The notes beneath the pieces are model-generated. The model saw only the letters and a program-made list of their open reading frames with translations. It was not told where the DNA came from and did not search any database. Source: Eledone cirrhosa (lineage: Eukaryota). Taken from it: DNA of 64,000 bases. The stretch spans positions 40,734,001-40,798,000 of the forward strand of contig OZ024745.1 in the NCBI GenBank assembly GCA_964016885.1, given 5' to 3'. Position numbers and translations under genes: made by a program. Each line of letters opens with the position of its first letter. The stretch's first letter is position 1. Shown here one piece after another: positions 27,421 to 62,720 of the stretch.

Positions 27421-27598
27421 CGTAATTCCGGGTTGTATCGGAGTAACCACAGTAAGTAAGGTACTCAATACATAGCAGAGTATAAAAGTTTTATATAGAT
27501 GAGATTCTACAGGACTAGAACTGTTTCATTCATTAGAAATCATCCTGATGATTTCTAATGAATGAAACAGTTCTAGTCCTGTAGATCTCATCTATATA
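27421..27598. mobile_element. Mini fold-back pLTR remnant (palindrome 27492-27598, tail 27421-27491) with partial HHR
   Basis: Arms around a 2-nt loop at 27545-27546; CTGATGA-tttctaatgaat-GAAA-cag-TT on the + strand; TA flanks. Confidence 0.7.
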
Positions 27599-27694
27599 TA
27601 TATATATATATATATATATATATATATATATATATATATATATATATATATATATATATATATATATATGTATATATATATGTATATATATATA

Positions 27695-27890
27695 TGTGAG
27701 AAAAACCACAGACCCTCCATCTCAACTCTACTTTTGAAAAGCAGAACTGCGAAACCAAATAAATATATATATTTTAAAAAAATAAGACTCCAGTTGCATT
27801 TTTGATTTCATTTTTTTTTCATTATACTTTCACTCGGTAGGACACCTCGGTTAATTTTTAATTTTGTAAAAAAAAACATCACTTTTTTCT
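27695..27890 (+). mobile_element. Solo pLTR of the Neptune-like family at 46.9-51.7 kb
   Basis: Aligns by eye to 51515-51725, with small deletions inside the HHR. Confidence 0.85.
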
Positions 27891-27891
27891 T

Positions 27892-28880
27892 ATGTATATA
27901 TGATATATATATATATATATATATGTATATATATATATATGTATATATATATGTATATATATATGTATATATATATATATATATGTATATATATATGTAT
28001 ATATATATATATATATGTATATATATATGTATATATGCATATATATATATATATATATATATATATATATATATATATATATATATGCATATATATATAT
28101 ATATATATATACATATATATATATGTATATATATATATATACATACATATATATATATATATATATACATACATATATATATATATATATATATATATAT
28201 ATATATCTATATATATATATATACATATATATACATATATATATATATATATATATGTTTATATATATATATGTATATATATATATACATATATATATAT
28301 ATATATATATATATATATATATATATATATATATACATATATATACATATATATATTTATATATATATATGTGTTTATATATATATATATATATGTATAT
28401 GTATATTATATATATATGTATATATATATATATATATATATATATATATATGCATATATATATATACATATATATATATATATATATATATATGCATATA
28501 TATATATATATATATATATATATATATATATTATATATATATATATATATATATATATATATATATATATATATGCATATATATATATATATATATATAT
28601 ATGCATATATATATATATATGTGTTTATATATATATATATATGTATATGTATATATATATATATGTATATATTTATATATATATATATGTATATATATAT
28701 ATATGCATATATATATATATATATATGCATATATATATATATATATATATATATATATATATATATATATATATATATATATGCATATATATATACATAT
28801 ATATATATATATATATATATATATATATATGTATATATATATATATATATATATATATATATGCATATATATATATATAT
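27892..28880. repeat. Imperfect (TA)n array (~1 kb)
   Basis: Directly visible. Confidence 0.97.
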
Positions 28881-29057
28881 ATTAGAAATTATAAGCTTTC
28901 ACCGTATTTTAGACTAAACAAATTTCTAGCCTGATAATGGGGTTTATAACACTCGGAGTAATGGAAAAAGATGGTGAAAGCTTATAATTTCTAATTTCAA
29001 ACTCGCGCACCGTTTCAAAAACATACTTACATGTTTACGTTTATAATTTGATTGTTT
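28881..29057. repeat. Short TA-flanked insert with a 23-bp inverted repeat and ~60-nt tail
   Basis: attagaaattataagctttcacc (28881-28903) vs ggtgaaagcttataatttctaat (28973-28995). Confidence 0.7.
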
Positions 29058-29182
29058 ATATATATATATATATATATATATGTATATATATATATATTAT
29101 ATATATATATATATGTATATATATATAAATATATATATGTATATATATATATGTATATATATATATATATATATATATATAT

Positions 29183-58426: not shown

Positions 58427-59920
58427 ATGGAAAAATTTGAACAGGGACAAAACAGAGAGGCAGTACAACAAATGTTTATTAATTTCACGCGCTGGAGAGT
58501 GGGGTGTTCGTGGGGGACGACGTTTCGGGCATAAGCCCTTCCTCAGGTGGGAAGTGTGTGGGAACAGAGTTCAAAGGGTGTGTAGGGGAGTGGTGGAGAG
58601 ACATATAGCGAAAGGAAACGGTGCGAATGAAACATTAAAAAATAAATATAAAAATAAAAATAAAGCATGATCAAAATACAAGGAATGAGATAAATTTAAA
58701 AATAAAGGCAGGATAAAAATAAACAGAAATTAAAAGGGGGTTAAACAGGTGGTGGAAGGGTGTGGGGTGTGTAGGGGTGGTGGCGGGTGGAGTGGGGAGA
58801 GGGAGACGGTGAGTCTGAGCGGGGAGGGCTGAAGGTGGTGTGTGTGTGTAGGTGTGCGTGTGTGTGTCTGTGAAAGTAAGGGTTGAGGGAGGAACGGGGT
58901 TGCATGTTCAGGAAGAGGTGTCTGTGGGGGGGAAGTTTGTGGGTAGGAGTGTCTGTGCGTGTCTGGATAGAGGGGTGGGGGGAGAGGAATCAGGAGGCTG
59001 AGGGTATAGATATGTGGTGGAAAGCACGTGTGTGGGGTTTAAGCGTGTTGAGGGTGTAGGTGGCGTGTGGAGAAAAAAAAAATGTTTTTTTTTGGGGGGG
59101 GGTTATATAGGTGGTTACGTAAGAGGATGGTTGAAAAGTTGGTAAATTCCGGAGATGTTTAGTGGATTGGTGACGTGGGGTGCGCGCGCAACAGGAAGTG
59201 GTCAGCAGTGGGAGTGCTGTGGTCTGTTTGTGCTGGGAGGTGGTCAGAAGGCATAGTAGCAGTCGGTGGAATGGGAAAGGGGCGAGGATGGGTAGGTGTG
59301 AAAGTTGGAGTGAGGAGGGTGTGTGTGTGTGTGTATTAGTAGGGGTGTTAGTGGGATGAGTGAGTGTTGAGCGAGGGTGTGGGTGGTGGGTGGAGCGGGG
59401 AGAGAAGGGTGTGTGTGGTTCTATGGAGGGAGTGTGGTGTACCGGTGTGTGTGTAGTTTGATGAAGAGGTGTTAGTGGGTGTTAGTATACGGGAGGTGGG
59501 GAGGGGTTGAATGCAGGTGTGAGTGAGGGTTAGTGGTGGTAGGGTGTGTAGAGTTGGTGGTGTACGAGGGTGTGTGGGTACGTGTGCGTGGGGTTGGGGG
59601 GTGTTAGTGATGTTAGTTGCGTGTGGGGTGGGTGGTGTAAGTGGGTGCGTGTGTTCGTGTGCTTGGAGTTAGGGGGTGTTAGTGAGGTTAATTGCGGGGT
59701 CGTGGGATGGAGGCGTGCGTGTGAGAGGTGTAGGGGTGAGGGTTAGTGGTGGTAGTAGGGTGTGTGTTTAGTGTGAGCGCGTGTATATATGTGCCGGTGG
59801 GTGTGTGCGTGTGATAAGGAGGGGGGAGGAGGAGAAGTGGGGAGGGAAGGGATGTTAGTATGTTAGTTGGTGAAGGGTGGTCAGATGAGAGGTGCAGTGG
59901 AGGTGTTAGTATTGTTAGAT
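58427..59920 (-). mobile_element. Probable PLE 3' UTR/pLTR remnant (C/A-rich on -), with an HHR core at 58516-58546
   Basis: Minus strand CTGAGGA-a gggc ttat gccc-GAAA-cgtcg-TC then AATAAA; strand skew like the other PLE UTRs here; TA flanks. Confidence 0.6.
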
Positions 59921-59989
59921 ATATATATATATATATATATACATATATTTATATATATATATATATATATATATATATATATATATAAA

Positions 59990-60021
59990 TATTGTTATAC
60001 TTTGGGAGGGTCATGTTGCCA
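59990..60021 (-). mobile_element. 30-bp terminus of the element-2 family
   Basis: tattgttatactttgggagggtcatgttgcca matches 32050 and 62300. Confidence 0.8.
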
Positions 60022-60578
60022 TATATAAATATATATATATATACATATATTTATATATATATATACATATATATATATATATATATATATATATACCTAT
60101 ATTTATTTATATATATATACATATATTTATATATATATATATATATATTTATATATATATATATATATATTTATATATATATATATATATATATATATAT
60201 ATATATATATATATATATATATATATATATTTATATATATATATAAATACATATATTTATATATATATATATATATACATATATTTATTTATATATATAT
60301 ACATATATTTATATATATATATACATATATTTATATATATATACATATATTTATATATATATACATATATTTATATATATATACATATATTTATATATAT
60401 ATATACATATATTTATATATATATATATATATATATACATATGTATATACATATATTTATATATATATATATATATATATATATACATATATATATATAT
60501 ATATATACATATATTTATATATATATATATATATATATATACATATATTTATATATATAAATATATATATATATATAC

Positions 60579-61750
60579 CTGTCCAATATTGGTGTCACTG
60601 GAAAGCTGCTGCAGTGGATCAAGAGCTTCCTGTCAAACAGAACCCAACATGTTGTAGTTGAGGGAGTCAAATCAAGCCCAGCAAAAGTCAGTAGTGGAGT
60701 CCCACAAGGCACTGTGTTGGGCCCACTTCTCTTCATCATCTATATTAATGACATCACTGACATCATCAAACACAGCAACATTAAAATTTTCGCTGATGAT
60801 TCCAAGCTCCAAAAGGTCATCAATGGCGTGGATGACCGGATAAGCCTTCAGTCAGACCTACTGGCTGTTACCCAATGGGCAGAAAAGAACAACATGTTAC
60901 TGAACGAAGACAAATTCGAACTGATCCACTTTGGAAAAGAGGATGCTCTGAAACTCCCGTACTCCCTTCCCTCCGGGGAAACTCTCGTGGCATCTAACAA
61001 CATCAGAGACTTGGGAGTAACCGTGGACAGCAACATAAGCTGGACCACGCATATAAGCAGCAAAGTTGACATGGCCCGCAGAATGTGTTCCTGGATCCTC
61101 AGAACCTTCCAGTCGAGAGATTCCCGCACCATTATCCTTCTCTTCTCTACTTTCGCCCGACCACACCTTGAATACTGTTGTCCACTGTGGTCTCCCCACA
61201 CGAAACAAAGTATCATGAAACTTGAAGCTCCTCAAAGGGCAATCACGAAAAAGATAGATGGCATGTCAGACCTTGACTACTGGGGTCGATTGGAAAATCT
61301 GAAACTTTACTCACTCCAACGTCGCCGTGAGCGTTATATTATCTGCATGATGTGGAAAATGTTCCATCATCACTGCCCAAATGATGTTGGCATCGCCTTC
61401 AAGATACACCCAAGGCTTGGGCCCCGTGCTATCCGTCCCATTCAAAAATCTAAATCGCAACTCATAACAACAATACGGCACAATTATTTCACCTCAATCG
61501 GCCCTGCTCTCTTCAACATCACACCAGGACACGTCAAAACAGAAACTGACCACACAAAATTCAAGAAGTCTTTGGACAAATTCCTCCAAGTAATCCCGGA
61601 CAAACCACCCACACCCGGATATGTCTCCGCAAACAGTAATTCTCTTCTCGAATGGGCCATGGTGCCCAAATCCTGAATTGAAAGACTTCGCCAGGTGGTG
61701 CTATTAAGTTAGACATGGCCTGGGCCAATACTGGCCAAAACATTTCAAAG
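60579..61750 (+). mobile_element. CR1-like LINE, 5'-truncated (RT C-terminal ORF to 61676)
   Basis: SGVPQGTVLGPLLF, FADDSK, RDLGV, LEYCCPLWSP, LYSLQRRRERY. Confidence 0.92.
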
Positions 61751-62299
61751 TTATATTTATATATATAAATATATTTATATATATACATATATTTATATAT
61801 ATAAATATATTTATATATATAAATATATATATATATATAAATATATATATATATATAAATATATATATACATATAAATATATATATATATATATATATAT
61901 ATATATAATATATATATATATATATATACATATATTTATACATAAATATATATATATATACATATATATATATATATATATATATATATACATATATGTA
62001 TATATATATATATATGTATATATACATATATTTATTTATATATATATATACATATATTTATATATATATATATACATATATTTATATATATATATATATA
62101 TATATACATATATTTATATATATATACATATAATTATATATATATATATATATATGTATCTATATATATATATATATATACATATATATATACATTATTT
62201 ATATATATATATATACATATATTTATATATATATATATATATATATATATATACATATATTTATATATATATATAGTATACATATATTTATATATATAT

Positions 62300-62720
62300 A
62301 TTGTTATACTTTGGGAGGGTCATGTTGCCAATAAGAAACACTCGCACCAGTTGCTTTCACTTCAATTTAATTTAATATATATTTATAAATTTACAAATTT
62401 TTCTCAGAAAAAATGGCGTAGGATAGAAGAAAGGAAAGGCACAGAAACGAAGAAAGAAATCCCAGTCTGAAGAGGTCACAGAGTGTGTGACGAAAGAACT
62501 ATGACTATATATATATACACAACTATCTGGTTGTGGAACCAACCAACCAACCAGAAATTTATAAATTTGTAAATTTATAAATATATAATAAATTAAATTG
62601 AAGTGAAAGCAACTGGTGCGTGTGTTTCTTATTGGCAACATGACCCTCCCAAAGTATAACAATATCGGTTTCAACACACGATTTCAGATAAAGAATCTTG
62701 CTAAACAAATTCAGAAACGA
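62300..62720 (+). mobile_element. pLTR-only insert of the element-2 family (inverted arm 62300-62400 + direct pLTR with tail)
   Basis: Matches ~35480-35800 and its reverse complement. Confidence 0.9.

Follow-up and report, generated by a model that had tools for sequence, protein, structure and literature searches.

Pairing of short and long ends in Penelope-like element inserts of Eledone cirrhosa points to likely double priming on one RNA

As far as the accessible text of the cited papers goes, endonuclease-bearing Penelope-like elements (PLEs) are described as partially tandem pseudo-long terminal repeats (pLTRs) with an adjacent inverted 5'-truncated copy and a one-sided tail of 30–40 bp (PMC3846280, PMC8557442). 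Both papers treat the tail as optional or often one-sided, propose self-priming or resolution by the endonuclease, report (TA)n targeting for Hydra and Naiad families and contain, in these parts, no pairing counts. For Poseidon of the green anole, both target strands were nicked and extended in vitro from two internal start sites that bound the tail, a protein dimer was predicted, and a hammerhead mutant indicated that ribozyme cleavage is dispensable (PMC11167929). In the twin priming of L1 both nicked strands prime on one RNA, one from the poly(A) end and the second from an internal position hit by chance, microcomplementarity joins the cDNA ends, and this side route yields mostly non-overlapping arms (10.1101/2024.08.27.596794); a further paper on twin priming in L1 has, in its accessible part, little bearing here (10.1101/2024.12.14.628481). 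Dimer folding between tandem repeats has been described for PLE hammerheads (PMC4209133), and non-coding tandem families have been linked to PLEs (10.64898/2026.07.22.740005). Here we analysed a stretch of 64,000 nucleotides from the 3.0-Gb genome of Eledone cirrhosa (C5:40734001-40798000, called the window), in which long (TA)n arrays are filled with PLE inserts, together with copies of the same families elsewhere in this genome. The inserts combine one short with one long end, and they likely form by programmed double priming, in which both nicked strands of the TA target are extended on the same RNA.

Self-comparison and end alignments revealed eight places in the window where an inverted and a direct arm are combined with an extension at only one end. 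All eight are PLE inserts, from seven families (A, A2, B, C, D, E and F) and at least two clades. A first-pass annotation of the window had described this layout for at least seven inserts of several families, which our count bears out, and had one end always stopping about 45–90 nt before the other. The distance from the short to the long end is indeed 43–91 nt, depending on the family, but "always" was too strong given one long+long insert, many lone arms and four inserts with a non-standard second end.

The pairing of ends was counted automatically over 223 merged regions plus the window, for pairs without a TA array between the arms. Uninterrupted head-to-head inserts were short+long in 112 of 114 cases over seven families (binomial p = 6e-31); the other two are one long+long and one short+short insert, the latter with a tail cut by other sequence. 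Omitted from the 114 are six pairs with a cut or intermediate end and 11 pairs with TA between the arms, which split into seven short+long, two long+long and two short+short. Tandem inserts with two standard ends were short+long in 10/10, and four others have one non-standard end. As 50 of 52 spacer lengths in family A are distinct, the pairing events are taken to be independent; a few pairs are duplicates (L193/195, L334). Apparent long+long pairs of families D and B at C1:10.05 Mb were rejected as separate inserts with TA in between. At L334 and L335, entire A2 short+long inserts have been tandemly amplified together with TA spacers.

Termini were sampled by searching exact end-motif patterns in the whole genome, reading the first 24–30 loci per motif search and, for family A, 98 of the first 100 matches with wider flanks. 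Sixty more regions were picked from the match lists, many for a paired look, a choice that favours pairs over lone arms and was nevertheless blind to end type. Exact matches numbered 24,178 for A, 15,411 for D, 6,324 for B, 16,040 for E, 3,411 for C, 11,749 for A2 and 1,527 for F; because the 30-nt motif of family A had no match at all in its control, its recurrence is not due to chance. Among family A ends that run into TA, the only ones scored, two positions take 121 of 125, so that the terminus histogram gives the two sharp, paired peaks that had been expected. Read-through copies of family A carry AATATCG at both the short and the long site, and the long site is identical in 97 of the first 100 of 450 such copies. 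In the other families the ends occupy two zones, within which they slide among adjacent TA/AT positions, and the A2 long-end positions are the same in contigs from independent runs. The long end had been placed on an element-encoded TA; this was seen for D at 47061 and, from read-through copies, also for A, A2, B, E and F. The catcTATATA motif proposed as a short site is used in family E, but by a minority (3/10 scored short ends); 6/10 end 7 nt further, with a 1-nt overlap. Lone arms are common, with 33 unpaired ends inspected. About 16 of ~105 family A arms start 260–280 nt upstream of the short site at a AAAATGGCG motif, which we take to be YY1-like; possibly this is an RNA start.

The inserts and lone arms of the window are:

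27420-27598, unstranded: family E hairpin insert with a hammerhead-like core at 27545; the long end and its tail lie to the left and the short end to the right
27694-27885, plus strand: family D lone long arm, its 5' end directly abutting TA
28883-29060, unstranded: family F insert, inverted short arm of 30 nt, then direct arm and tail
32050-32476, minus strand: family A short arm, of a subfamily unlike its partner's
32477-35800, plus strand: family A long arm with a broken reverse transcriptase (RT) and GIY-YIG open reading frame (ORF), hammerhead-like core at 35540, short site at 35745 and tail running to 35800
44611-45030, unstranded: family B hairpin, arms folding at a natural palindrome near 44772, tail about 44941-45030
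46590-46878, unstranded: family C hairpin, tail 46807-46878
46888-47036, minus strand: family D inverted short arm, matching 51515-51664 at 149/150 positions
47037-51732, plus strand: family D full unit with two ORF pieces (47061-50527, RT and GIY-YIG), pLTR and tail 51665-51732; an upstream tail fragment terminates in the long-site TA at 47066
52248-56361, minus strand: family A2 short arm with the length of one full unit, beginning at the upstream short site, upstream tail included
56352-56390, unstranded: family A2 head-to-head junction, templated duplication of 17 nt
56378-57572, plus strand: family A2 long arm, tail 57522-57572, hammerhead-like core at 57281
59990-60021, minus strand: family A lone short arm of 31 nt, no partner, TA on both sides
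62298-62722, unstranded: family A insert, inverted short arm of 103 nt, direct arm from about -265, tail 62666-62722

The two arms match over 160 bp at 99.4% in the B hairpin, at 149/150 positions in D, 93/95 in C, 28/30 in F, 101/103 at 62300, 1092/1135 in A2 and 391/427 at 32050. The insert at 28883-29060, previously listed as probable, is confirmed as one of family F, a non-coding tandem family with a unit of ~290 bp. The short end had also been called the same at 32050, 52250, 59990 and 62300. This applies to the terminal motif; the 52250 insert, however, belongs to A2, a sister family of that at 32050 and 62300 with 70% ORF identity and only this motif in common, and 59990 is a lone arm. 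Compared with the described endonuclease-bearing units, the inserts here and elsewhere in the genome show the same partial-tandem pLTRs, inverted 5'-truncated copy, one-sided tail, microsatellite targeting, some target duplications and putative hammerheads in the pLTR, whereas their tails measure 43–91 nt, their ends pair in the 112/114 cases given above, and their arms are probably two separately primed copies.

Separate priming of both target strands, with head-to-head joining of the cDNAs, had already been suggested, and besides the pairing it is supported by arm reach and by tail stubs. Among 39 pairs the short arm reaches further upstream in 15 and the long arm in 16, with eight ties. Five short arms are capped by an inverted tail stub, 5–22 nt in length and derived from the far tail end (L311 adds a stub of 31 nt), and these tail-only stubs are sequence absent from the short arm. 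Stubs and short arms that outrun their partners together exclude a single fold-back. A stub occurs in 5/8 TA-bounded lone short arms versus the reverse in 0/6 lone long arms (hand count, p = 0.03), a difference that would follow if synthesis from the long site can stall ahead of the short-site hybrid. Arms above 1 kb co-occur (five pairs with both, p = 0.002), and the overall rank correlation of arm lengths is not significant.

The inner ends are joined at natural palindromes or with filler that is partly templated, and fold-backs of 4–13 nt are present at some junctions. In a crude scoring of 30 junctions, eight overlap by at least 2 nt (null 14%) and four by more than 4 nt (null 1.5%); within the limits of this scoring, palindromes and filler resemble the end joining of two free cDNA ends. 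A 16-bp target duplication lies in unique flank at L193/194, candidate duplications of 14–28 bp in periodic TA arrays may be due to chance, and most flanks are uninformative. Contigs from four other runs did not bridge the junction at 56377; one 88-nt contig spans the centre of the family B hairpin, inside the palindrome, and may stem from another copy.

The first-pass annotation had left the choice between two RNAs and one tandem RNA. The arms of one insert usually share one source or subfamily: in a substitution-only count, 16 of 20 family A pairs differ at no more than 10% of the diagnostic sites vs 11% of comparisons between inserts, and 44 of 54 arm pairs of the other families are closer than their family median, so the proposed comparison of arm with family divergence came out in favour of a common source. 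Further evidence comes from clusters of one-strand A>G changes in family A copies, which we infer to be traces of adenosine-to-inosine hyper-editing by ADAR. A genome search for such copies gave nine matches, corresponding to three two-armed inserts and three single arms, with 15–51 A>G per copy vs 1–7 other changes in eight of the nine selected pieces (ninth: 5). The 5' neighbour (edited/all) is A in 44/79, C in 21/60, T in 11/32 and G in 12/43. On trimmed arms, the partners within the three inserts share 25/26, 14/15 and 28/29 A>G changes; between inserts, 10–29 sites are discordant. The arms of L073 have 20 private changes in common, all A>G, and this pattern occurs exactly twice in the genome, in these two arms; the short arm extends 280 nt past the long arm, the tail is on the long arm only, and the edits are common to both. 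At L300 the short end lies at an unedited 3' pLTR and the long arm matches an edited internal pLTR, through which the short arm passes as well. Since both arms run through one edited internal pLTR, one tandem template appears to have been read twice. Overall the data favour one RNA, and two different RNAs fit a minority of inserts, possibly the one at 32050 and the long+long insert.

In the edited family A copies (L073, L300, L304, L301-L303; C1, C2, C3, C4) the A>G clusters are fixed in DNA. For the three two-armed inserts, the edits mostly cease 90–110 nt ahead of the short site; two single-arm copies are edited up to their end, which in one of them lies mid-tail.

Double priming on one RNA could proceed as follows. 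The endonuclease would nick both strands of the TA repeat with a stagger, and the protein would put each 3' overhang on one of two zones 43–91 nt apart, where it would settle on the nearest TA/AT through 2–7 base pairs. The downstream RT would then displace the upstream cDNA from the intact RNA, and end joining of the microhomology type would connect the two free cDNA ends. If the RNA is a tandem, the two sites may fall in different units, as L300 suggests, and failure of one primer would leave a lone arm. TA pairing at two fixed sites had been proposed as the basis of priming. Of 13 dominant sites, hand-picked from terminus histograms, 12 overlap TA by at least 2 nt vs 20% for random breakpoints (p = 4e-8); the overlap is short (1–7 nt) and not always present, and the long ends of family A that overlap by 1 nt are compatible with a primer that paired at the next TA inward, tolerating a single mismatch. 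This supports zones that are set by the protein and refined by TA pairing, which thus acts as fine-tuning and not as the determinant, and it narrows the gap to the "no homology" result reported in the accessible text of PMC11167929. A conserved tail hairpin linking both sites was rejected, with z < -1.7 in no more than 2/7 families.

Several observations weigh against this reading. A 1-nt overlap is found at the main family E short site and at 10/72 family A long ends, tails fold better than shuffles in only 1–2 of seven families, and arm lengths lack the trailing bias that strict displacement might predict. The junction scoring is crude, with apparent filler in 18/30 and 9/39 unscored. The 32050 arms stem from different subfamilies (9/21 diagnostic sites differ) and therefore represent either a two-RNA event or two insertion events, and the long+long insert carries two tail variants. 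Only three edited two-armed pairs were seen, and the internal pLTR of L300 also has about 17 changes other than A>G, so its edits may stem from an edited source locus instead of one RNA. Finally, the Poseidon study saw, in its accessible part, neither primer-RNA homology nor a start-site difference between the strands and hence does not show a short/long asymmetry (PMC11167929).

Poseidon nevertheless resembles the inserts described here in its two start sites bounding the tail, the use of both strands, the predicted dimer and the dispensable hammerhead cleavage; unlike there, where the accessible text does not address inverted inserts, the sites here lie on short TA motifs and the strands use different sites. 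With L1 twin priming our inserts share priming of both strands on one RNA, which by shared sources and edit barcodes appears to fit most pairs, with exceptions, and they may also share joining by microcomplementarity and positively related arm lengths. In contrast to L1 (10.1101/2024.08.27.596794, accessible part), both PLE sites are fixed and internal, the arms overlap by up to kilobases and this is a main route. The PLE process resembles twin priming in how it works, without having the geometry that defines it. More tentatively, and at somewhat less than even confidence, programmed asymmetric double priming may be how endonuclease-bearing PLEs normally integrate, across clades: the strands would be assigned to the short and the long site by an asymmetric RT complex, and one RNA would be copied twice by strand displacement without target-primed second-strand synthesis, which would make the tail and the inverted pLTR direct products.

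Among the alternatives, double priming on two RNAs, held together by a protein dimer or a hammerhead RNA dimer and usually from the same locus, fares best, although we consider it unlikely. It would explain overlapping arms without strand displacement and fits both the 32050 insert and the long+long insert with its two tail variants; a PLE protein dimer has been predicted (PMC11167929, accessible part), and the L300 edits may have been inherited from the source locus. Yet hyper-edited copies are rare (nine vs 24,178 ordinary ends) and all 3/3 two-armed ones share their pattern between the arms, no edit pattern recurs elsewhere in the genome, and a symmetric dimer gives no reason for short+long pairing.

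An RNA dimer would involve the hammerheads, which had been linked to the layout as dimer-type ribozymes with palindromic helix III. Putative hammerhead core motifs with plausible stems were found in A, B and E and the core alone in A2 and C, and the search gave no clear core in D or F. Helix III is cleanly palindromic in family B only, where candidate hammerheads lie at 44840 (+) and 44705 (-) of the hairpin. An Rfam scan yielded sub-threshold microRNA matches on hairpins and TA runs and no hammerhead family. In L073 the core is destroyed by edits in both arms; as both arms were still made, the hammerhead is not needed for the layout, which agrees with the Poseidon mutant (PMC11167929). The link is not supported, given the restriction of the palindrome to B, the like-with-like ends a symmetric dimer predicts, and L073. 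Those candidate cores of A, B, E and 58546 whose helix III is short or palindromic resemble the ones of PMC4209133 (accessible part), but the inverted layout does not require dimer folding. The core at 58546 is a minimal hammerhead with the palindrome CG as helix III, in a single-arm element end at 58426-59918 (-).

It is rather improbable that endonuclease cleavage of a DNA intermediate determines the ends, with the tail as resolution product as in the accessible text of PMC8557442, or that protein-fixed sites do so without pairing, so that the TA motifs would be nuclease sites or coincidence. Ends with 1-nt overlap exist, and in vitro the endonuclease prefers AT-rich DNA and homology was not needed (PMC11167929, accessible part). 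However, the ends slide between adjacent TA/AT within a zone (A2, B, E, F), target sequence overwriting element bases one TA register inward fits a mismatched primer, and the in vitro start sites already explain the tail without a DNA intermediate.

Very improbable is an artefact or secondary history, be it assembly mirrors, back-to-back insertions into a TA hotspot, gene conversion or re-copied master hairpins. TA arrays are strong hotspots with nested inserts, the 32050 insert could be two events, a few pairs are duplicates and independent contigs leave the 56377 junction unbridged. Mirrors, however, would be symmetric instead of short+long, and contigs of other runs give the same long-end positions; back-to-back insertions would leave TA between the arms and pair at random. 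Junction positions are nearly all different. Since 139 private changes are unshared between arms vs 47 shared, 20 of which are the L073 edits, gene conversion is not pervasive, and each arm, read in its own sense, shows the edits as A>G, which puts them on opposite strands of the genome; a copied hairpin transcript would not give this. Least probable of all is self-priming, in which one cDNA or antisense RNA folds back and copies itself (PMC3846280, accessible part): near-symmetric hairpins on palindromes among many short inserts, the shared source of the arms and the small fold-backs at junctions agree with it, and some of the symmetric hairpins could still arise in this way, but as a general route it is contradicted because the short arm must lie inside the long arm, which is violated in 15/39 pairs, by the tail-only stubs and by L073 with its edits in both arms.

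In the coding region of the long inserts, an RT precedes a C-terminal GIY-YIG endonuclease. In family D, 48200-50524 matches RVT_1 at E = 1.5e-6, barely under the cut-off, and GIY-YIG at 5.1e-6; in family A, 33642-35327 matches each at 4e-4, and the motifs also align in B and E copies. Aligned against the definitions in the accessible text of PMC8557442, families A, A2 and D have a CX2-5CxxC linker and CCHH in the endonuclease, whereas B and E have a DKT motif and a CxCX5C linker without CCHH (L340 for B; L350-L352, the long copies carrying the ORF, for E; in the window 24737). Judged by these motifs, A, A2 and D are of Neptune/Nematis type, the two types not being separated, and B and E are of Hydra type. 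An ORF in a long family C locus was rejected as the partner of C, being near-identical to the B ORF and probably nested. The N-terminal part of the A/A2 ORFs contains an Asn-rich low-complexity stretch (54197-56389 and 32500-32940), which resembles that in rotifer PLEs (PMC3846280, accessible part).

Further features of the window are:

23540-26833: one arm only, with a Hydra-type ORF (DKT, CxCX5C); the region also holds a hammerhead-like core on the minus strand at 23692, a duplication of 26 bp at 26741-26795 and, at 26802-26894, a short end related to family B
39906-40634: outer inverted repeat, extended on one side by ~65 nt of CT-rich sequence; both arms enclose old family-A-like short ends flanked by TA, the insert layout one level up
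42486-42786 and 40783-40865: more palindromes, of other families
43190-44222: partial direct tandem (430 bp x2, 98.6%) between TA arrays, without inverted arm
45300-46511: end of a GIY-YIG-like ORF, 5'-truncated and from another family, with TA arrays on both sides
60581-61698 and 62770-63887: 3' parts of an RT-encoding long interspersed nuclear element, 98.4% identical, arranged tail to tail on either side of the TA array with the 62300 insert

The inverted pLTR and the one-sided tail of PLEs, which the first-pass annotation rightly gave as known (PMC3846280, PMC8557442), and the two internal start sites (PMC11167929) are in print already. Strict short+long pairing and double priming on one PLE RNA are apparently new: the literature searched, with subscription papers and bioRxiv supplements outside reach, held no statement of such pairing or of one PLE RNA copied twice. 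PLEs are the closest relatives of telomerase RT, and in the accessible texts the origin of their tandem and inverted inserts and of the tail is named as open in PMC8557442 and left open in PMC11167929. The short+long rule and the edit barcodes, pointing toward one RNA copied twice, would replace the self-priming model, and predictions for the in vitro system already in use follow directly from the rule. Double priming would also explain why this genome fills with hairpins able to make double-stranded RNA.

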